Source: Octopus vulgaris
Taxonomy: Eukaryota
DNA: 64,000 bases
Assembly: GCA_951406725.2 (NCBI GenBank)
Contig: OX597823.1
Coordinates: forward strand, 29,512,001-29,576,000
Direction: 5' to 3'
The notes beneath the pieces are model-generated. The model worked only from the letters and a program-made list of their open reading frames with translations, did no database searches and was not told the DNA's origin. The translations under genes were made by a program, and so were the position numbers. Positions 3,376-59,885 of the stretch are shown piece by piece. Numbering within the stretch: position 1 is the stretch's first letter; the number at the start of each line of letters is the position of its first letter.

Positions 3376-4029
3376 TACGAAGAAAAGTAAAAAGTTATCC
3401 ACACTTTCGCCATAACATATCTTTATTATCACACTGCATTCTGCGCATGCGTGTTTATAGTTGGTACTATTGTGGTCACGTGATCGAAGTTTGAGCGTGA
3501 TCGCGCCGTTTTTCTTTCTCATTTTACAATGTAAACATGGCCGCTTCACTAGCAATGTGTACCAAAGAAGAACAAAGAGCAGCGATCCGATTTCTCTGGT
3601 CGGAACGTGTGTCAGATGCTGAAATTCATCGGTGGCTTTTAGCACAATACAGGGACAGTGCACTACTGCGTAGAAGTGTGTATGAGTGGATCAAAAAGTT
3701 TAAAAGTGACGCCTGAACAGGGAGCAGGACATCCGTCAACCTCCACCACTGACGGGAAGATTCAGCAAGCTCGAGAGATGGTAATGGTGAACCGGTTCAC
3801 TACTACCATTTCTCGGATCACTGCTCTTTGCTCTTATTTTGTGCACATTGCAAGTGGAACGGCCACGCTTGCACAGTAAAGTCATAAAGAAAATGGCGCG
3901 TTCAGGTTCAAACTTCGATCATGTGACCACAATAGTACCAACTATAAGAAAGCTGAGACAGAAGGCAGTGTGACAATAATAAAGAAATGTTATGGCGAAA
4001 GTGCGGATAATTTTTGACTTCTATTCGTA
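3376..4029 (+). mobile_element. Internally deleted mariner element with ~140-bp inverted ends and a transposase N-terminal HTH remnant
   Basis: Ends TACGAAG.../...TTCGTA; 3537-3716 encodes MAASLAMCTKEEQRAAIRFLWSERVSDAEIHRWLLAQYRDSALLRRSVYEWIKKFKSDA*, continuing after a frameshift as GAGHPSTSTTDGKIQQAREMVMVNR. Confidence 0.8.
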
Positions 4030-10750: not shown

Positions 10751-11158
10751 GGATCTTTTCGGTTTGAACGGCAGTTTTTAACATAATTTCTAGGTAACTA
10801 AAAAATTTTAAACTTCGTATACTGGTAGAATGTGTTTATAAAACATCTTTTTCTCTTGGCTTTATTGAGAAAATTCTATAGTTTGTAAGATATTTATTGT
10901 TTTTTTTTCTTCAATTTCTGCAATTTCAACCAATCAATGACGTCCATTGAGGTAAAAAAACATTCTGTGCCGTATGAATATGTCCCTCGTTTAAGAAACA
11001 GATTGGGTTTATTTACATTTCTGAAGAAAAAAAGATACCCTTCCCTCCACCCCTAACCCTAAAACAGATTGAAATAGATCGATACTAGGGTCATAATTAT
11101 GGGTGACAATTTCATATGACACCGCTAGAAAAAACTGCCGTTCAAACCGAAAAGATCC
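10751..11158. mobile_element. MITE with GG..CC termini (Merlin-like) inserted into a SINE
   Basis: TIR GGATCTTTTCGGTTTGAACGGCAGTTTTT; 8-bp flanks CCAATGCC/TTAATGCC; internal CCCTAA repeats. Confidence 0.8.
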
Positions 11159-12191: not shown

Positions 12192-12360
12192 CTTATTATT
12201 TAACACACTCACCGGTAAAATTTCCACTTATTTTAATTCTCTAAAATTTTCGTTGCGTCTTGCAAACTTTTCAATAGTCTTGACTATTGAAAAGGTTGCA
12301 AGACGCAACGAAAATAAGGAATAAGTGGAAATTTTACCGGTGAGTGTATTAAATAATAAG
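12192..12360. repeat. Long fold-back palindrome
   Basis: Inner 34-bp arms 12246-12279 and 12282-12315 with a 2-nt loop and one mismatch; outer arms about 40 bp. Confidence 0.9.
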
Positions 12361-14402: not shown

Positions 14403-14592
14403 CGGGAAGGTTTACGAAAATAAACAAAAGACGAAGGCTAGGTGGAGTACAAACAAACAAATGTATTAGTATAGTGCTCAGGAATAGAAATAGAAAAAGT
14501 CTTTTACGTTTCGAGCCTACGCTCTTCGACAGAAAGATACACAGAAAAAAAAAACAAGGAGAGAAAAAAATGCGTTTAGGAGCTAACGATCT
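14401..14592 (-). mobile_element. Short Penelope-like terminal module with variant hammerhead (14500-14537)
   Basis: Minus strand UCUUU-CUGUCGA-A-GAGC(GUAG)GCUC-GAAA-CG-UA-AAAGA; embedded in (TA)n. Confidence 0.65.
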
Positions 14593-14647: not shown

Positions 14648-14649
<2 letters not shown>

Positions 14650-15027
14650 CTCTTTTACTTGTTTCAGTCATTTGACTGCGGCCATGCTGGAGCACCGCCT
14701 TTAGTCGAGCAAATCGACCCCGGGACTTATTCTTTGTAAGCCCAGTACTTATTCTATCGGTCTCTTTTGCCGAACCGCTAATTTATGGGAACGTAAACAT
14801 ACCAGCACCGGTTGTCAAGCGATGTATATCCATGAATCTATACACACACACACATATATATATACGACGGGCTTCTTTCAGTTTCCGTTTTCCAAATCCA
14901 TCCACAAGGATTTGGTCGGCCCGAGGCTATAGTACAAGACACTTGCCCAAGGTGGCATACAGTCGGACTGAACCCGAAACCTCATGGTTTGTAAGCAAGC
15001 TACTTACCACACAGCCACTCCTGCGCC
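14648..15027 (-). mobile_element. SINE family A, full length
   Basis: Near-identical to 36038-36462 and 47641-48044; CORE-like CCTTGGGCAAGT after the head. Confidence 0.9.
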
Positions 15028-15031
15028 TATA

Positions 15032-15047
<16 letters not shown>

Positions 15048-15062
<15 letters not shown>

Positions 15063-15381
15063 ATATTAGGGAATAAATCCAAAATTACAGGGAAAAAATC
15101 AGATTTAGGATTAAATCCAATTTTATAGTAAAATATATAATATTAATTCGAGACAAAACCACTATTTTGCAAATCAAACAAGGAGAGACTTAATCAATAC
15201 ATAAAAAAATTTAATATAAAGTAAATAAATCGCCACTACAATTGTTTCATGTCTTCAAATGACATTCGTCAGGTGGATTTCCGATCTTCTATTCAGTTTT
15301 AATTTACTTTATATTAAAATTTTTTATGTATTGATTAAGTCTTTCCTTGTTTGGTTTGCAAAATAGTGGTTTTGTCTCGAA

Positions 15382-15395
<14 letters not shown>
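15048..15395 (-). mobile_element. Penelope-like element end with inverted arms enclosing a hammerhead
   Basis: Inverted arms 15133-15226 and 15302-15395; hammerhead in the spacer; unpaired tail 15048-15132; both ends in (TA)n. Confidence 0.65.
15233..15276 (-). ncRNA. Minimal type I hammerhead ribozyme, canonical core
   Basis: Minus strand: CCAC-CUGACGA-AUGUC(AUUUGAA)GACAU-GAAA-CAAUUG-UA-GUGG; all core nucleotides present, helices I and II pair, helix III is the palindrome ACAAUUGU, cleavage after GUA. Confidence 0.85.
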
Positions 15396-15422
<27 letters not shown>

Positions 15423-15907
15423 TATATTTGTTTTAGCAGATTACCTTAAGCCTTTTTCGTATCGATATTACCCTTTTAATATGAGTTTATATCAAACGAA
15501 TATAAGACATCGTATGCAAAAGGGACTTTTCAACAATGGACGGCGTATGAAATGTTCGTTCTGTCTAAGGAAACGAAGCTTTGTGTGTTCCGACAAACCA
15601 CCAACGATGATTTGGCTGGTTTCGTTCAGGAAATTTTTCTCTTGCAGTTTCCCTTCGAGCGGGACAACAAAGTTCTGTCAATAGTGAACCTTTGAAAACC
15701 GTGATTTAGGAAAATCCAAAGCAAATTGCACGAGAATTAGCAAAACAGGGCAATTCAAGTCACCCTTCGATTATAAAACAATTTTAAAGAAACTTGGAAA
15801 AGTGTCTAAACTTAGTCATTGGTTGTCCTCTGTACCTCATTGAGAAACAAACTTGCGACCGAACCTATCCTGGGTCCTCTATAATTGCATCTAACGAAAA
15901 TGACAAT

Positions 15908-16304
15908 GGAGTATAATTTTTTGGCAACGTAACATGGCAGTCCTGGTTTACGACTAATGTTGTTGTAGTTTAGCCCCAGGAGACATCGTCTCCAGCTGGC
16001 TATACGACACGATCTGTGTCCTTATATTTTCGAACAAGGGAATCTAGCACCCCAACTCAGCTCAAAACAGTATCTGTGTATCGCGATTTCCGGATTATTT
16101 CCCTTCATCAGCACAGAATAATCGTTACGGCTAGAGGTGGCGCTGCCAAATTCCCGTTCGAAATATATAGTTTTCAAAGTGACAATATAAGGACACAGAT
16201 CGTGTCGTATAGCCAGCTGGAGAAGATGTCTCCTGGGGCTAAATTACAGCAACATTCGTCCTAAACCAGGAGTGCCATGATAGGTTTGCAAAAATCTTTA
16301 CTTC
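15908..16304. mobile_element. Fold-back element with long inverted arms enclosing a hammerhead
   Basis: Well-matched arms 15933-16028 and 16184-16279 with degenerate extension to 15908/16304; interrupts a mariner remnant. Confidence 0.7.
16073..16117 (-). ncRNA. Minimal type I hammerhead ribozyme motif
   Basis: Minus strand: UCUGUG-CUGAUGA-AG-GGA(AAUAA)UCC-G-GAAA-UCGCGA-UA-CACAGA; 6-bp helix I, palindromic helix III AUCGCGAU, base of helix II imperfect. Confidence 0.7.
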
Positions 16305-17024
16305 AGAGTACTGTTGCTGAATATCTCTCGTTGTGAAATTTAAAAATAGTAATTTTCGAAAACGATAATATTGCCCAAAACATTACGATACTTAAATATG
16401 GAAATTTCGTCTCATCCCTCTTACTCTCTTGACCTTACTCCGTTTGATTACCATCTTTTGAGATTGTTCCAACATTATTAAAAGGGAAGACAGATTCTGA
16501 ATTGGGTTGGGGTTAAAAAATGATATGAAGTGTTTCTTTGCATCCAGATCAATTTACCGAAGAGATTGATATCATCTTATCAATAATAACAAGGGGGAAA
16601 TATTATCTTGATTAGAATATATTAAGACCAAAGAAACATTTGTTTCTTTCCCATCTTGAAACGCTACAAGACTTTCTTTTCAACAATGAAAGAATTGATT
16701 AATGAACGTAGATAGATTACATAGTCTTGTATCTCATCTGTTCTCTTTCAACAACACACAATAGCTACGCGTGCGCGCACACACACACACACACACACAG
16801 TCGTTAACGCGTCGAACAGAAAAGCCTGGAGGTATTCAATTATTCCGACTCACTGGGCTCCGAGTTCACATCCTATCCAAGCCTTTCGTGATTACCGTTT
16901 CGCCACGCCAGTCCGCCAGGGCGGCGAATTGGTGGACGAATAACGAAGTGGACCAGGTGACTTGTGGTATTCATTCCGTCTCTTCACACACATACACATC
17001 ATATACACACATAATAGTGTGGCT

Positions 17025-20750: not shown

Positions 20751-22327
20751 ATGGAGTATTGTTATTAGTGGTATCTGGTGGTGGTTATAGTTATAAAGGG
20801 CAGTAGACTTGTAGGTAATATATATTTCTTTATTGCCCACAAGGGGCTAAACATAGAGGGGACAAACAAGGACAGACGAACGGATTAAGTCGATTACATC
20901 GACCCCAGTGCGTAACTGGTACTAAATTTATCGACCCCGAAAGGATGAAAGGCAAAGTGATAGTAGTGGTGTTTGAGGCAGTAGTGTTATTGGTGGTGAT
21001 GGTGATAGTGGTAGTGGTGGTGGTACTAGTAGTAGTAGTAGTGATGGTTATCATGATACTAAGCGTATGATTGTGTGGGAACTTCTGTTTCTGGCGTTAT
21101 CATCCCTAACCGAGCTGTCATGTATGATGTGACAGGCAAGAAGTCGGCCGAACGACCAGCTTCGAACCACTCGCCGTTACACCTGAGAACCAACACTCTT
21201 ACACACCAACGTGCAGCGGTAAATCGCCTGGGATATTAATGCGCCAGTGTGGACATGTTCGGCACGCGGTGACCCTCATTGAACAGAATGGGAAGTCTGT
21301 ATCGTAAAATAAAAAAAATAAAAAGTAAAAAGTAAGGTAGAGTTTCACAAATGTCATGTAGAGAGAATAAACTTCGATTAACTGGAATTATTCATGCTAT
21401 CGGTAACAAACTAGAAAGCCACGATACACCAAACAGCGATGATTAATTTGAACATGTATACAGTTGTATTTAACCGGTCACATTGCACATTTATACAGTT
21501 ACACGTTCGTGAACACTCGAAAGTGAACTCGATGCGAAAAAATGTCTTGGTAGAATGATAGTCTTCATAGAGAATGACTATGAAAGATGATGTCAGCGAA
21601 CTGAAGAGGATGTTTCGATATCGTTATGCTTCATCAGCTATGGACATCAAATCCGTCGTTCAACGAATAAAAGCTGGGGCTCTTCAAAATGAAAAAAAAT
21701 TCAACAATCAAGGGAAATAATCCCTATAAAATAACTAATTGAAACTTTTAGGTGAAGTCTAGGTATACACCACCTAGTAAATGCTTATTAGCAATACATA
21801 GTGTTTGCGCGCGCGCTTGTGTGTATGCATGTTTGCATACATAAATGACTGTTTAACTAAGCTGGCACATATCTTTGTGTATATGTCTGTGTATCAGTTT
21901 TTAGAATAGGTATAGAGTATTCCGCTGTATCTTGCGAGGCGAATAAACAAGTTGCTATCAGGGAGCGCATACAAATGTGACAAATTGTCTCAAAAAGCTT
22001 CGGATAACCCATGCCGGCGAAGAGAGATGGATACAAAGACGTTGATAATTATATAGATATATATATATATGTGAGTATATGTGCCTCAAGATGTGGAGGA
22101 AATATTACCATAGAAAAACAAATCAATTATTAATTCAAGGAGAGTTGCTTAAGGCGGAAGATCAGCTGTTGTTCGAGATGTAATCTCTAGGTGATCTACG
22201 ATGTTAAAGAGCGCACCACTGACGAAAAGATACGGGCATGTAAATCCTCCACACAAACTGTACACTGTCCATGTAATGTCCCACAATTCAATGTCCCCCG
22301 TGGCAAATAAAATACCATAACCACCAC

Positions 22328-24335: not shown

Positions 24336-24472
24336 GTTGTAATTTACAGAAAAACAAAAGACAAAGACAGATGTATAAACAACAAACAGGAGTAGTAGTT
24401 TAACGCTTGGGAAGGTGAGAAAGTCTTTTACGTTTCGAGCCTACGCTCTTCAATAGAAAGGAACACAAGGAA
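24336..24472 (-). mobile_element. Short Penelope-like terminal module, degenerate hammerhead (24425-24460)
   Basis: Same family as 6451 and 14401; core reads CUAUUGA-A-GAGC(GUAG)GCUC-GAAACGUA; (TA)n on both sides. Confidence 0.6.
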
Positions 24473-24709
24473 ATATATATATATCGTGTTATGCGAAGAA
24501 GCCGGGCATGGCCCCATAATTTTCGACTCGATTCAAATGTAACAAACGACTCTAAATCGTTGTTAGACTATCCGCGTAAGTGGATAGTCTAAGTCCGAGT
24601 AGTTATTATTCAGGCATCAAGTTGTATTAGTTGTAATAATGAAATCAAATCCAATAGTAATATTTTGAAATCCTTTACTGCTTTAACTGAGGAACGTAAT
24701 ACATGCATT

Positions 24710-25142
24710 GGATCTTTTCGGTTTGAACGGCAGTTTTTTTAAATAATTTCCACGTAACTATAAACACTTTTAAACTTCGTATACTGTGGTAGAATGTGTT
24801 TATAAAACATCTTTTTCTCTTGGCTTTATTGAGAAAATTCTATAGTTTGTAAGATATTTGTTGTTTGTTTTCTTCAATTTCTGCAATTTCAACCAATCAA
24901 TGACCGTCTATTGAGGTGAAAACATTCTGTGCCGTATGAAAATGTCCCTCGTTTAAGAAACAGATTGGGTTTATTTACATTTCTGAAGGAAAAAAAGATA
25001 CCCTTCCCCCACCCCTAACCCTAACTAACCCTAGCCCTAAAATAGATTGAAATGCAATAGATCGATACTAGGGTTATAATTATGGGTGACAATTTCATAT
25101 GACACCGCTAGAAAAAAACTGCCGTTCAAACCGAAAAGATCC
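24710..25142. mobile_element. MITE with GG..CC termini (Merlin-like), second copy
   Basis: Same TIR; perfect 8-bp TSD CATGCATT (24702-24709, 25143-25150); internal CCCTAA repeats. Confidence 0.85.
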
Positions 25143-27686: not shown

Positions 27687-27758
27687 TCCTCGGTAGTATA
27701 GTGGTAAGTATCCCCGCCTGTCACGCGGGAGACCGGGGTTCGATTCCCCGCCGGGGAG
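27687..27758 (+). tRNA. trnD-GUC: tRNA-Asp (anticodon GTC)
   Basis: TCCTCGGTAGTATAGTGGTAAGTATCCCCGCCTGTCACGCGGGAGACCGGGGTTCGATTCCCCGCCGGGGAG: 72 nt, acceptor stem TCCTCGG/CCGGGGA, anticodon loop CTGTCAC, intact A and B boxes; matches the conserved metazoan tRNA-Asp. Confidence 0.93.
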
Positions 27759-30869: not shown

Positions 30870-31560
30870 TAATGTTCAATTTGAACAGTTGCAAATCAGC
30901 TGTTGCGGGTAAAATACGTCATTTGCAAGGGAAGAAGGAATTCCGGAGGGTCGATGATATGACGAGCAAGGACTGGTGACAGTTGTTAGTGCAGGTTCTG
31001 GGGAGGTTTGGACACAATAAGGATAGCGAACAGAAGAGAGAGACGAGGTCAGCAGGTCCTTAGAAACAAAAAGATATTGTAGTAGCGGTACCAAAAAAAA
31101 AAAAAAACCCAGAGGAACGAGATGTCTGAGCGTCCAAGGGTGGGATGCGGTGGTGAGCGACTTTAAGGTGATCTGCCGGACTGTCTGTCTGAACATGGCT
31201 GAGTATGTTTGAGTGTCCAAGGGTGCAATGCGGTGGTGAGTGACTAAGGCGATCGGTCGGATTGTCTGTCTGAGCATGTCTGAGTGTCCAAGGGTGCAAT
31301 GCGGTGGTGAGTGACTAAAGCGATCGGTCGGATAGTCTATCTGAGCATGTCTGAGTGTCCAAGGGTGCAATGCGGTGGTGAGTGACTAAAGCGATCGGTC
31401 GGATTGTCTGTCTGAACATGGCTGAGCATGTCTGAGTGTCCAAGGGTGCAATGCGGCGGTGAGTGACTAAAGCGATCGGTCGGATTGTCTGTCTGAGTGT
31501 CCAAGAGTGGAATGCGGCGGTGAGTGACTTTAAGGCGATCGGTCGCACTGTATCGGACGG
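30870..31560 (-). mobile_element. CR1/Jockey-like LINE ORF2 C-terminal remnant
   Basis: Frameshifted IRPIALKSLT..HPWTLRH, WYRYYN, YPYCVQ, PRTCTNNCHQS, STLRNS, PATADLQLFKLNINQI. Confidence 0.6.
31127..31555. repeat. Six-unit minisatellite, units 61-83 bp
   Basis: Units start at 31127, 31210, 31281, 31352, 31433 and 31494 with TGAGTGTCCAAGGGTGCAATGCGG. Confidence 0.95.
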
Positions 31561-31916: not shown

Positions 31917-32040
31917 TGTGTGTCTGTGTGTCCATGTGTGTGTGTGTGTCCATGTGTATTCCCGTGTGTGTGTATGCGTGTCTCTGCGTGTGTGCGTGTG
32001 TGTATGCATGTATCTTGGTGTGTGTAGATTGTATGTATGA

Positions 32041-32362
32041 AGGTGCGTGGCTTAGTGGCTAGGGTATTCGGTTTACGATCGTAAGGTCATGAGTTCAATT
32101 CCCGGCGACGCGTTGTGTCCTTGAGTAAGACCCTCTATTTCACGATGCACCAGTTCACTCAGCTGACAATAATGATAATACCTGCATTTCAAAAGGGACC
32201 ATCCGTGTCACACTCTGTGTCACGCTCGATCTCCCTAAGAACTACTTTAAAGGCACGCGTATCTGTGGAACACTCAAGCCACTGGCAACGTTAATTTCAC
32301 GAGCAAGCATTCCGTTGGTCGGATCAATTGGAACACTCGTCGTTGAAACTGACGGAGAGCCA
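32041..32362 (+). mobile_element. tRNA-derived SINE family C
   Basis: A box TGGCTTAGTGG, B box GTTCAATTCC, TTGTGTCCTTGAG domain; reverse copy at 35489-35807, degraded copies near 2865-3125, 23350-23560 and 59505-59662. Confidence 0.8.
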
Positions 32363-35488: not shown

Positions 35489-35807
35489 GCACTCCGTCGG
35501 TTACAATGACGAGGGTTCCAGTTGATACGATTAACGGAACATATTACTCGTGAAATTAACGTGCAAGTGGCTGAGCACTCCACAGACACGTGTACCCTTA
35601 ACGTAGTTCTCGGGGAGACTCAGCGTGACACAGTGTGTGACAAGGCTGGCCCTTTGAAATACAGGTACTACCCATTTTTGCCAGCTGAGTGGACTGGAGC
35701 AACGCGAAATAAAGTGTCTTGCTTGAAGGACAAAACGCGTCGCCGGGAATTGAACTCACGACCTTACGTTCGCGAGCCGAATGCCCTAACCACTAAGCCA
35801 CACACCT
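35489..35807 (-). mobile_element. SINE family C
   Basis: Reverse-complement homology with 32041-32362 along its whole length. Confidence 0.8.
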
Positions 35808-36037
35808 TCACCAATGGTTAGACAACTAAAGGATAGACACCTCGGCAATCTTTCGTTTTGAAAGATCGCCGACAACTCACAACAGACTAGATAAACACTT
35901 TGTTACTAACGCCTTGCTGGACACTTTACTATAAGCTACATGGACATTTTAAGTGTGTCTAACCAATATAGTTAGACATAAACAACATGGTCAGAGCTGT
36001 AAGAAAATAGCACAGCCCATAGACGAATATTCAGCTG

Positions 36038-39634: not shown

Positions 39635-40380
39635 AAGTACTGGGCTTACAAAGAATAAGTCCCGGGGTCGATTTGTTCGACTGAAAAGGCGGTGCTCCAG
39701 CATGGCCGCAGTCAAATGACTGAAACAAAGTAAAAGAGTAAAAGAGTAAGAGAGTCAAGTCAATGCTTCCGTCAAAGTGACTGACCTTGAGCCCTAAATT
39801 GAGACTATTTTATCATAGATCGACAAGTACTGGGCTTACAAAGAATAAGTCCCGGGGTCGATTTGCTCGACTAAAAGCGGTGCTCCAGCATGGCCGCAGT
39901 CAAATGACTGAAACAAGTAAAAGAGTAAAAGAGTAAGAGAGTCAAGTCAATGCTTCCGTCAAAGTGACTGGCCTAGAGCCCTAAATTGAGACTATTTTAT
40001 CATAGATCGACAAGTACTGGGCTTACAAAGAATAAGTCCCGGGGTCGATTTGCTCGACTAAAAGGCGGTGCTCCAGCATGGCCGCAGTCAAATGACTGAA
40101 ACAAGTAAAAGAGTAAGAGAGTCAAGTCAATGCTTCCGTCAAAGTGACTGGCCTTGAGCCCTAAATTGAGACTATTTTATCATAGATCGACAAGTACTGG
40201 GCTTACAAAGAATAAGTCCCGGGGTCGATTTGCTCGACTAAAGGCGGTGCTCCAGCATGGCCGCAGTCAAATGACTGAAACAAAGTAAAAGAGTAAAAGA
40301 GTAAGAGAGTCAAGTCAATGCTTCCGTCAAAGTGACTGGCCTTGAGCCCTTAAATTGAGACTATTTTATCATAGATCGAC
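39635..40380 (+). repeat. Four-unit tandem array (180-190 bp) of SINE 3' half plus unique flank
   Basis: Units start at 39635, 39825, 40012 and 40192 (AAGTACTGGGCTTACAAAG...CATAGATCGAC). Confidence 0.95.
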
Positions 40381-49487: not shown

Positions 49488-49677
49488 GTTAATCCAAACG
49501 GGAAAACAGAAAAAACAAAAACACGTGGAACAATGACAGTATTATTATTATTAGGCGCTCAGGAAAATGGAAGAAGGAGGGTATGACGTTTCGAGCGGAG
49601 CTCTTCGTCGGAAACATAAGAGAAGGAAGAAAGAAGAAAGAAAGATCCCGATGTGGGCGAACAGAGGGAAAAGAAAA

Positions 49678-55744: not shown

Positions 55745-57543
55745 CCTTCGAAACGTTTAGTAGATGAAACCTTAGCGACTGAAGAAGGGGATTTTTCGTT
55801 GTGCTTATTGTCCTGTATCTCTCTTTTTTTGCTTGTCTTGTTCCTTGGTTTGTGTCTATGTTTTTCGTCTCTCTATGTGTTCGACGTCTTTTTGGTGTCC
55901 TGTACACATATATGCGTGTATATGTACATGTAGAGGTAGGTACGTACATATATGTTTATATATATGCATATATTTTATTAACATATATATATATATATAT
56001 ATATATTTGCAGGCTATGGCCATGCTGGGGCACCGCCTCGAAGAATTCTAGTTGAACGAATTGACTCCCCCGCCCCGTCATACATATATATATATATTTA
56101 TTCTTTTACCGAGCCGCTGGTGTTACGGGCAAGTAAAACCAGCAACACTGGTGCTCCAGCATGGCCGCAGTCTAATGACAAATAAATGGAAAAAAAAATA
56201 AAAGATTTCACCACCACTCCGACATCCCCACCCTTATCTCCACCGTCCCCGCCCTCCCCGATTTGGCAGCCCGGTGGCGATGGTGGTGGGGGAAATGAAT
56301 GAGAGGAAATAGGGGGGGGGGGCAAAAGGCTGTGGTGGTAGTGGTGGGAGAGGTCAAGTTAAGAAAAGAAAAGAAAGCAGCATCTAAAATAAGATGGAGG
56401 GAAGGGTTAAAAAGAATGTTAACGGGGTAGGAGGATGAAAAGAGGGAGAGGAGAGAAACAATGAAGGGTTAGAGGAGGAGGAGGAAGGGAAAATGGAAAA
56501 GGAAAACAAAGAAACAAATTATAAAGTAAGAATGCAGACAGGTAGGAGGAGGAAGAGGAGATAGAGAGAGAGAAGGAAGGGAGAGAAGACAGTTGTTTGC
56601 AAGCAGGTGTAGTGTAGTTAAAAGCCCATTGGTCAGTCTTAATTGAGCAGACCGATGACGAAAAATGTTCCGGCCAAGACTATCTCGTCTGATTGTATAT
56701 ACAAAGACTACTGCATTAATTGTACATATCCTTTATTTTTAAAATGGTCAGTAGGATGTGATTTGAGAAAGATTTGGTTGCCATTTCTAGCTGGTCTATC
56801 AAACTACCCGAGCTTTTCGCGTTTTCCCTGCGTCAGTTGATACAACGCTACAACGTAATCTATAATGGATTGTAGCGTAGTATCACATGGTATGGTTTAA
56901 AAAGTAACGTATTTGTAGATTCAACAGTGACACTATCTCTGTGCTACACGTACATGTAACTGTCAGTTGAAACATACCCCTGATGATATATCGCAGTGTA
57001 GAATATACTTAATGCTGATACCATTTAAAATTGCATATCACTAGTTCTGAAACCTGTCGCTTTGCCGAAGGCAAGATGGTAGAATTTTAAATTAAAATGT
57101 TTTTTGTCCATTCAAAATGCTATCTTTTTATACAAGATATAAAATATATTCGGATTTCAATACAGTCTTTGAAAGAATCAGAAAGTTATTAAACTTCAAC
57201 TTCTATTTTAGTTTTCAGAAAAAAAAATATCTTATTAAGGGTTTTCAATTGGATGAAATATCGAAAAATCGCTCGTCTTTTTTAAGTGAAGGCTTTTAAT
57301 GATTAATTTTTTAATATTACTTGTGAAAAAAAAAAGTTTTTAACTAGATGCGTTTTCCATAGACAACATTGCTAATCAAGGTGTCGTCTTCATCATTATC
57401 ATGTCTTTCTGGGTGTTTGGACAATTTGTAGGAAACTTTAGCTGTTATCTCTAGCAAGTCGAGTGACCACATAAAAGACATTGAATGTATGTGTGTGTGT
57501 AGGGGGGTAGATACCCATAAAACTACCACATATGCTGATAGTA

Positions 57544-57807
57544 TTGGGCTGGTGCATAATTATTGCAGTTTTTTTTTCCAATAAAATTCAACAAAAACAA
57601 TAACAACATGTAACAAAAACATCTTTAAATGATTATTCCGGAGCATATTCACCATCTACTTCAATTACTGCTTCCGATTTGCTTGCTAGACGGTCAGACC
57701 GTCATTTAAAGATGTTTTTTTGTTAAATATTGTTATTGTTTTTGTTGAATTAAAATTTGTTGCAAAAAACAAAAAAAAAAGCCGCAATAATTTATGCACC
57801 AACCCAA
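57544..57807. mobile_element. Mariner-derived MITE
   Basis: TIRs TTGGGCTGGTGCATAATTATTGC / GCAATAATTTATGCACCAACCCAA, TA on both sides; minus-strand internal remnant EAVIEVDGEYAPE* resembles a mariner C-terminus. Confidence 0.8.
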
Positions 57808-57826
57808 TATTACGTCTCCAAGAATA

Positions 57827-58604: not shown

Positions 58605-58730
58605 GGTTCAAAATTGTATAAAAAGGCAGAAGAGAAAACTAAAACAGACCGGTAAGGGAACAAGAAGTCTAGTTTGACGCTGAAGGAAAACGGAAGAGTC
58701 TTTGACGTTTCGAGCCTACGCTCTTCTACA
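58605..58730 (-). mobile_element. Truncated Penelope-like terminal module with partial hammerhead (58700-58730)
   Basis: GTCTTTGACGTTTCGAGCCTACGCTCTTCTACA matches the family; truncated at a SINE fragment. Confidence 0.55.
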
Positions 58731-59885
58731 CTCACAAGGGTTAGGTGACTCGACGTCATAGTATAAGACACTTGCCCGTGGTACCACGTGCGTGACTGAA
58801 GGCGAAACTTTGAGGCTGGGAAGCGATCTTAAGCACACAGTCATGCCTGCGCCCAATCCAAAACGACATCCAAACACCAAGCAGCTGAGCAATCATCAAT
58901 CATAGCCGTATGATCTGGTAGCATATATCATGCTTTCGTTAATTGTTTTACTGCTTATGTAGTCAGAAGCAGACGTGGACCCATTAGAAAGCATCCAGAG
59001 TGCGACAGCTGGAGGAGCAGGTCGAACTCAGCACCAAGCTAATCATTTCCAGATGGGTAAACCAAAGCGACATGAAATTAAGCGGCTTGCTTAAGGAATA
59101 GTTGACAGCCAATCCTAGTGAAAGTAAATTGCGACAGACACCAGATAGACACCGGAAGTGACGATAGTGATATCCCATAATTCTATTGCTATTATTATAT
59201 AGCAACAGACCGATGCATAGAACGTAACATAGGAAGCCTACCAATCGAATACGAAATGTAATATCCTTTGCGTTATAATGGACTAAAGTGTTCTGCCTGC
59301 TCGATCAATGGTCTCAATCAGGCAGCGTCTTCTAGTTGAACGCGTTTTTACTGCTCCAACCACCTAATTCCCCTTATGCTACTTAATCCGGTGATATTTT
59401 CGACGCTTGTGCTCCTATGAAATTATGGGCACTATCGCCACTATGGCGCAATTTACTTCCACTTTACTCTGACATTAAACTGCATAGTAACCGAGAAGGT
59501 CTAAACTAGCACCCGACTGCTTGTCGTTTTTAGCTCAGTAAACTAATGCAACATGAATTGAAGCGTTTTATTCAAGATACAAATGCGCTGCCCGACCCAT
59601 CAACCGACCTCACGACTCTATGATCGCGAGCCCGACAGCCTAACCATTAAGCCACGCGCCTTTCATATCCAACCGTTACAATACGCTAACCGTTATACAC
59701 CCAATATTCTCTCACCAGAATGTGATTAAACTTCCAGGAAATCCTTCCTTACAACCAATTGATAAGCATCAGAATAAAATTAGCCTCAATGGCATCAAAC
59801 TCAGGTGGGGAATCGTCGTGTAATGTTCCTTCTTCCAGAGCTGGCTTATAAAATAAGATATATTTGTCATAATTTGTCATTATTA

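Follow-up and report, generated by a model that had tools for sequence, protein, structure and literature searches.

A hammerhead motif in the loop of a 94-bp inverted repeat of Octopus vulgaris, a likely remnant of a Penelope-like insertion

Introduction

Why does a hammerhead ribozyme motif sit in the loop of a long inverted repeat? At the Octopus vulgaris locus described here, such a motif lies in the 75-nt spacer of a 94-bp inverted repeat, within a 64-kb stretch of AT-rich animal DNA (the window) that is dense in microsatellites and in copies of one SINE family. A first-pass annotation gave the coordinates of this arrangement correctly and offered two readings of it. One is the insertion of a Penelope-like element (PLE) with an inverted partial pseudo-LTR (pLTR); the other is a transcript that processes itself as double-stranded RNA (dsRNA).

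PLE insertions are described as carrying an inverted, 5′-truncated copy at the 5′ end and a tail at one end only, and as residing in (TA)n targets (Craig et al., 2021; PMC8557442). Head-to-head arrangements are reported as the most frequent, with pLTRs of 181–218 bp and a junction overlap that was read as self-priming (Arkhipova et al., 2013; PMC3846280). The evidence presented below argues well for this origin. The locus is likely a PLE pLTR remnant, in which a ~260-base high-copy repeat with a type I hammerhead motif meets an inverted shorter copy of itself head to head at a 5-base microhomology within (TA)n, and the 94-bp hairpin probably arose during integration. The hairpin is likely a by-product of insertion rather than a selected self-nicking dsRNA.

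Architecture of the locus

The features of the locus are as follows.

14648..15027, minus strand: neighboring tRNA-derived SINE copy, with more than 10 homologous copies in the window and with A-box-like and B-box-like motifs recognized by eye
15028..15060, no strand: left flank, (TA)n then (AAT)n, the inferred target microsatellite
15061..15132, minus strand: 3′ extension ("tail") of the long copy only (repeat family D13), covered by family depth
15133..15226, minus strand: left arm, long-copy sequence on the downstream side of the ribozyme
15227..15287, minus strand: type I hammerhead motif and helix I extension; core 15272–15237, predicted cut 15237^15236, palindromic helix III 15245–15238
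15288..15306, minus strand: 5′ end of the long copy; agreement between family contigs and the window extends to 15306 (records 15 and 23, the joint 15306–15370, and loose ends)
15302..15306, no strand: 5-nt microhomology ATTTA, common to both copies at the head-to-head junction
15302..15395, plus strand: right arm, an inverted, 5′-truncated copy without ribozyme or tail
15396..15427, no strand: right flank, (TA)n, the inferred target microsatellite, with no readable target-site duplication

The 3′ extension consists of two imperfect repeats set 38 nt apart (15065–15095 and 15103–15133). At the junction, the microhomology can be extended to 15299, where 7 of 8 positions pair. The right arm begins 10 nt downstream of the equivalent of the cut site. 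The arms (15133–15226 and 15302–15395) are identical at 91 of 94 positions, and two of the three mismatches (15174/15354, 15185/15343, and 15209/15319) are A-C on the minus strand; the differences are not compensatory. Both states of 15209/15319 are common in the repeat family, and the other two mismatches look private, one to each arm. A minority allele, G15182/C15346, is present on both arms, at a position where the family has A at 77–82% of depth. The whole region folds at z = −23, and no second copy of the ribozyme-bearing repeat occurs anywhere else in the 64-kb window.

Sequence and class of the hammerhead motif

On the minus strand, CCAC (15276–15273) and GUGG (15236–15233) form a helix I of 4 bp. 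The core comprises CUGACGA (15272–15266), GAA (15248–15246), and A17 at 15237, which closes a GUA triplet. Helix II has 5 bp closed by A-U, AUGUC (15265–15261) with GACAU (15253–15249), and a 7-nt loop. The helix III strand is a perfect 8-nt palindrome, ACAAUUGU (15245–15238), which can also be drawn as 2 bp and a tetraloop. The core is a complete type I core on the minus strand (CUGANGA, GAAA, and UH, with three helices and open at helix I), and the cut predicted from the motif falls at the site proposed earlier, between 15237 and 15236.

When the two strands of the window were scanned with a structure-aware pattern, the motif was the sole match, and 50 shuffles gave 0 matches at that stringency. 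It is not a chance occurrence. A second structure scan of the window returned 4 matches, including the 15237 ribozyme, against 0.02 per shuffle. By structure scan it is the most complete hammerhead in the window, which agrees with its earlier rank as the best candidate there for an active ribozyme.

The description of the motif as "canonical" was too strong. Canonical metazoan type I hammerheads have a helix I of 6 bp, a helix II of 4 bp, and a highly conserved G10.1-C11.1 pair (PMC4209133), whereas helices I and II have 4 and 5 bp here and the 10.1-11.1 pair is A-U. Rfam returned no hammerhead: the whole window gave one match at gathering score, a tRNA, and a search of 15000–15450 by E-value gave nine weak matches, none of them a hammerhead. 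The motif also departs from the minimal hammerhead consensus of PLEs in its helix II (5 bp instead of 7–8 bp) and in having no unpaired base between A9 and position 10.1. It does have the short palindromic helix III, able to pair between two copies, that marks PLE-type hammerheads. This classification follows text descriptions of the known motifs, and published alignments in figures and supplements may bear on the helix assignment.

A second family of minimal hammerheads lies on the minus strand at 14532–14505, 12672–12646, and 6575–6548, with an extra A after A9, a GAGC...GCUC helix II, and an ACGU helix III. Decayed relatives are found near 24400–24480, 49530–49630, and 58660–58750. The 12672 copy has the standard core, and U replaces A at core position 6 in the 14532 and 6575 copies and in two decayed relatives; judged from these sequences, the U may be a family-level core variant. 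A near-perfect palindrome with almost no spacer (12192–12360), which may be a fold-back junction or a MITE, lies 300 nt from the 12672 hammerhead. A further candidate at 21598–21637 has the core words only, was missed by both structure scans, and was rejected as a hammerhead.

The repeat family in public sequencing runs

Some of the locus is present in 20 of 24 listed runs (11 studies, 4 organism labels). Four of the 24 were compared with the locus at 80% likeness and yielded 5,873 (X1), 1,173 (X3), 22 (X10), and 98 (X17) contigs, the X1 and X3 counts being those over 381 bases. The ribozyme and the arms are parts of a very common, high-copy repeat. When the right arm is folded onto the left, the summed depth in X1, which is a relative profile and not a copy number, is 2.86 million over the arm, 0.18 million over the 3′ half of the ribozyme, and 0.016 million over 15288–15300; the corresponding values in X3 are 1.63 million, 0.12 million, and 0.007 million. 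This steep 3′-to-5′ fall fits strong 5′ truncation, and divergence may contribute to it. The greater part of the family depth comes from 3′ pieces that lack the ribozyme. Arm and ribozyme form one continuous family sequence in contig records 2, 3, and 12. Among the ends listed, 27 X1 contigs stop at 15133 and enter (TA)n, and the right arm ends at the same point. The X10 contigs do not cover 15319–15320, and contigs cannot demonstrate absence.

Variation within the family is unevenly placed. Among the variants listed for the deep DNA runs X1 and X3, those of at least 5% affect 4 of 8 free positions (loop II and N7), 0 of 12 core positions, 0 of 8 in helix I, 0 of 6 in helix III, and 2 of 10 in helix II, both in the closing pair. 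This distribution gives a Fisher p of 0.007 for copies that are related and not independent. Since family variation spares the core, the ribozyme appears to have been constrained in the parent elements. At 15230, a frequent substitution replaces an A-U pair of the helix I extension by G-U, whichever register is used, and one family variant has U-U at the base of helix II.

Head-to-head joints in sibling copies

Among the joints listed, thirteen others, all distinct, connect the left part with the right arm, each with a different breakpoint pair and each represented by one contig with a short side (22–28 letters where given) at 80% likeness. Such joint contigs must hold an inversion because the arms are inverted. 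Offsets at these 13 joints range from 0 to 148 nt. Eleven exclude the ribozyme, one cuts through it, and one (15306 to 15370) extends past it. Thus, as the siblings are mostly fold-backs without a ribozyme, the pairing of ribozyme and arms at the octopus locus needs no selection. A loose end of X17 at 15297 carries helix III and a helix I strand in the opposite orientation and is likely a further case, with an inverted arm that overlaps the ribozyme.

Five records reach 15306 and then diverge: the window, the X1 joint, X10 record 15, and two X17 contigs. Past this point the loose ends of the two X17 contigs agree at only 0.68, about as much as unrelated AT-rich ends; copies longer than that of the window must leave it at 15306, and only the mutual disagreement in this small sample is informative. 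It suggests, weakly, a fixed 5′ boundary at 15306–15308, and one of the divergent records may hold the true upstream sequence.

Origin of the inverted repeat

The assignment to PLEs is drawn by analogy from the anatomy of the insertion. An inverted, 5′-truncated copy stands head to head at the 5′ end of the long copy, both at the locus and in the 13 sibling joints listed, and the repeat combines a (TA)n target and 5′ truncation with a high copy number (for which depth is a relative profile only). Both the layout and the sibling joints match the accounts of PLE insertions in PMC8557442 and PMC3846280 and support the earlier proposal of a PLE insertion with an inverted partial pLTR. The one-sided extension and the recurrent second end at 15133 recall the optional tail of PLEs, but the extension of ~72–85 nt is about twice as long as the published 30–40 bp.

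Coding sequence of a parent element was sought in the window and beyond. From 742 stop-to-stop frames of at least 45 aa, 306 passed a complexity filter, and the longest 290 were searched against Pfam; neither a reverse transcriptase (RT) nor a GIY-YIG domain was found, the two matches being to neither, and there was no host exon. A search of three collections (metagenome, genome, and viral contigs) with a ribozyme pattern specific to the family gave 0 loci and hence no parent ORF.

A course of integration can be proposed. The element's endonuclease would nick the (TA)n tract, and a first cDNA would run from the tail end (~15060) to 15306 on uncut RNA. The presence of 70 nt upstream of the cut site suggests an uncut template. 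The other arm would then be made either by the 3′ end of the cDNA folding back on ATTTA/TAAAT or by a second priming on the other strand, and would end at the family's second terminus (the 15133 equivalent), whose ATATAT matches the target. The ribozyme would come to lie in the loop because the long copy is complete and the short copy began 10 nt past the cut site. It was probably inherited from the parent element, and its design would suit action in pairs, by way of the palindromic helix III, or together with the protein of the element. The minority allele common to both arms (15182/15346) fits one event and would favor one template; the 15209/15319 difference would be compatible with two templates. 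For the element PAc, protein-assisted cleavage, an uncut RNA template, and nicking and extension of both strands are described (Frangieh et al., 2024; PMC11167929).

Predicted folding of the ribozyme with and without the arms

Folding was assessed with ViennaRNA secondary-structure energies, which ignore tertiary contacts and Mg2+. In a single copy, helix III has a probability of 0.00 and the active fold lies 3.8 kcal/mol above the ensemble; helix III is absent because part of the core mispairs with the helix III strand. With two copies, the lowest-energy fold is a double hammerhead with a shared 8-bp helix III (−21.2 versus 2 × −7.7 kcal/mol). The arms raise the probability of helix I from ~0.10 to 0.82, because they lock away AU-rich downstream sequence, and that of the hammerhead fold from 2.7e-4 to 2.1e-3 (~8-fold). 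Even with the arms, the active fold makes up 0.2% of the ensemble.

Two structural details of the first-pass annotation were also followed up. The ~90-bp duplex is predicted for a transcript of either strand (minus, −129.7 kcal/mol; plus, −135.3 kcal/mol). The extension of helix I by AAAU/AUUU over a 2-nt bulge exists in the sequence, but its pair probability with the arms is 0.10–0.12, and the lowest-energy fold pairs AGAUCG (15287–15282) with CGAUUU (15232–15227) in its place.

These models predict that a lone ribozyme with no partner in cis would cut weakly without a second copy. PLE hammerheads with a small palindromic helix III are described as requiring dimers and as having low activity (PMC4209133), and those of the dimer type as slow even as dimers (PMC6765202; PMC4209133). 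Cleavage by the ribozyme of the Anolis PLE is reported only with the element's protein, and uncut RNA is given as the main insertion template (PMC11167929). Some activity of the monomer is possible by analogy with an axolotl motif, whose helix III also has 2 bp and a tetraloop and which showed 22% cleavage in an hour as a monomer (PMC7229834).

Transcription, RNA editing, and a possible function

None of the 24 listed runs is recorded as RNA, which carries no information on expression. Near-identical copies of the ribozyme are present in two putative RNA runs (records 12, 15, and 23). Those that reach 15306 continue into other sequence and are thus copies from other loci. The adjacent SINE, whose head lies at 15027, is oriented away from the ribozyme and was rejected as its promoter. 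A host transcript across the locus, if any, would probably form a long duplex and be edited by ADAR, which would be ordinary for inverted repeats. Editing was rejected as a reading of the arm mismatches. T-to-C changes, which read as A-to-G on the strand of the ribozyme, occur at 15242 and at 15245 (core A15.1) in four X17 contigs each, at 10–12% of depth. They are found in neither X3 nor X10, and X1 has only that at 15245, in one contig (47.6 of 151,921). In X17, a putative RNA run, these core changes may be a weak hint of editing, or an allele or subfamily.

An unlikely but more specific picture can be drawn from these observations. The family would consist of non-autonomous hammerhead elements only ~260 nt long, whose fixed 5′ end lies 70 nt upstream of the cut. 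Uncut RNA would serve as their template, and they would regularly integrate as fold-backs. The geometry of an insertion would then decide the state of its ribozyme. Arms that stop short of it, as here, would clamp it into shape and keep the cut halves together; arms extending into it would enclose it in dsRNA, and there A-to-I editing of core A15.1 would inactivate it.

A functional self-nicking hairpin is improbable. In this reading the arms of a minus-strand duplex would hold the ribozyme in its active shape, and the duplex, once nicked, would enter ADAR or small-RNA pathways. The intact core, the gain in helix I and in the hammerhead fold that the arms bring, and the ribozyme copies in the putative RNA runs would all suit it, as would the two A-C mismatches and the very high level of hyper-editing reported for octopus (PMC5625713). 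However, contigs of the putative RNA runs part from the window where they reach 15306 and so are other copies, none is seen to bridge the junction, and no host gene or promoter direction was found. The arms differ without compensation, siblings share the shape without the ribozyme, and helix III is absent in one copy. The earlier claim of a self-processing dsRNA is unsupported, given a dimer-type helix III, one copy at the locus, an active fold that stays rare with the arms, and 11 of 13 listed siblings without a ribozyme. As for the proposed Dicer substrate, the cut would leave single-stranded overhangs of 10 and 65 nt, which is not a Dicer-type end. A literature search joining "hammerhead ribozyme," "A-to-I editing," and "Penelope" found nothing.

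Retrozyme, DNA transposon, and artifact

Non-LTR retrozymes are short non-autonomous units with a type I hammerhead that spread via circular RNA, and the locus could be a solo monomer with an inverted partial copy. The unit of ~260 nt, its low GC, the 2-bp-plus-tetraloop drawing of helix III, and the U-U variant at the base of helix II, a feature that axolotl HHR_Amex2 also has, all resemble such elements, and the divergence of five records at 15306–15308 would agree with a unit boundary. Retrozymes have been proposed to derive from pLTRs (bioRxiv 10.64898/2026.07.22.740005), so this explanation overlaps with a PLE origin. It is nonetheless doubtful to a high degree. The locus has a single ribozyme and no tandem, 0 of 13 listed joints are head to tail (15015–15071 was skipped, and such joints could be missed), the bulk of family depth is in 3′ pieces that lack the ribozyme, and helices I and II depart from the canonical 6 and 4 bp.

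It is very improbable that the locus is a DNA transposon of the MITE or fold-back type, with terminal inverted repeats of 94 bp, a TA target, and a hammerhead by chance. A long inverted repeat flanked by TA is what such an element would leave, internal-deletion derivatives also yield variable inner joints, and MITE-like repeats occur nearby, but the ends are asymmetric, since on the left side alone family sequence continues past the arm, for ~72–85 nt. In addition, the family has arm and ribozyme in one continuous sequence, and depth declines one way. An assembly or library fold-back artifact is barely credible: PLE inverted structures are said to trouble assemblies (PMC8557442) and no contig bridges the junction under a 31-letter rule (those that cross it, records 6–8, have fewer than 31 letters on one side), but 3 of the 94 arm positions are mismatched and each arm carries a rare allele, siblings share the architecture, and X1 record 8 spans the junction (15280–15350) with two other letters, two gaps, and a depth of 24.8.

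Other features of the window

The window holds several further repeats. A MITE-like inverted repeat at 15907–16305 has 125-nt arms that are 88% complementary and a 149-nt spacer, and a degenerate long inverted repeat lies at 57539–57812. A mariner-type relic (3376–4029) has inverted repeats of ~215 nt and a match to the Mos1 HTH at 3501–3713 (E 3.7e-05). Tandem arrays consist of ~187-nt pieces of the 3′ part of the SINE, 95–97% identical (39635–40380), and of 70–80-nt units (31122–31551). Dispersed repeats pair 10751–11158 with 24710–25142 (89% alike) and 32038–32360 with 35489–35810 (82% alike). A tRNA-Asp(GTC) gene lies at 27687–27758 on the plus strand.

Significance

The locus is one more Penelope-type insertion, and a clean example in which a junction microhomology, two 3′ ends, and an uncut ribozyme can be read in 350 bases. 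The many junctions of the family bear on a question named in PMC8557442, that of the route by which tandem and inverted PLE structures arise. If the family is a fold-back hammerhead element, its thousands of junctions would make the formation of PLE inverted copies countable in one genome. If the ribozyme cuts in its clamped loop, or if editing silences it, PLE ribozymes would be linked to the heavy RNA editing of octopods. Among the papers listed by a search combining octopus, Penelope, and hammerhead, none concerned this family by title or the start of the abstract; the family may already be named in a repeat library.

Comparison with known systems

The closest parallels are the pLTR insertions of endonuclease-positive PLEs (Craig et al., 2021, PMC8557442; Arkhipova et al., 2013, PMC3846280). 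As described in these papers, they share with the octopus locus the head-to-head inverted shorter copy, the small junction overlap, the tail at one end, the (TA)n target, heavy 5′ truncation, a unit near 200–260 bp, and an internal hammerhead. The octopus locus differs in having no ORF and in its extension, which consists of two ~38-nt repeats and measures ~72–85 nt rather than 30–40 bp.

Metazoan PLE hammerheads (Cervera and de la Pena, 2014; PMC4209133) are likewise of type I, with a helix I of 4 bp and a palindromic helix III for dimers, and occur mostly as single dispersed copies; opposite-strand pairs 100–700 bp apart are reported. Unlike the motifs described there, the octopus ribozyme has a helix II of 5 bp rather than 6–8 bp, A-U in place of G10.1-C11.1, no unpaired base after A9, and a palindrome of 8 nt. 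Non-LTR retrozymes, exemplified by axolotl HHR_Amex2 (Cervera and de la Pena, 2020; PMC7229834), resemble it in the short AT-rich non-coding unit, the 2 bp and tetraloop, and the U-U variant of helix II. However, the octopus locus is not tandem, most of its family depth lacks the ribozyme, and the helix sizes differ.

PAc, a Poseidon element of Anolis (Frangieh et al., 2024; PMC11167929), has two alternative 3′ ends, an AT-rich target, and an uncut ribozyme in the insert, as does the octopus locus. In the published account, the PAc ORF starts in helix II and its priming is not target-homologous, whereas the octopus locus has no following ORF and carries TA-type microhomology at both ends.
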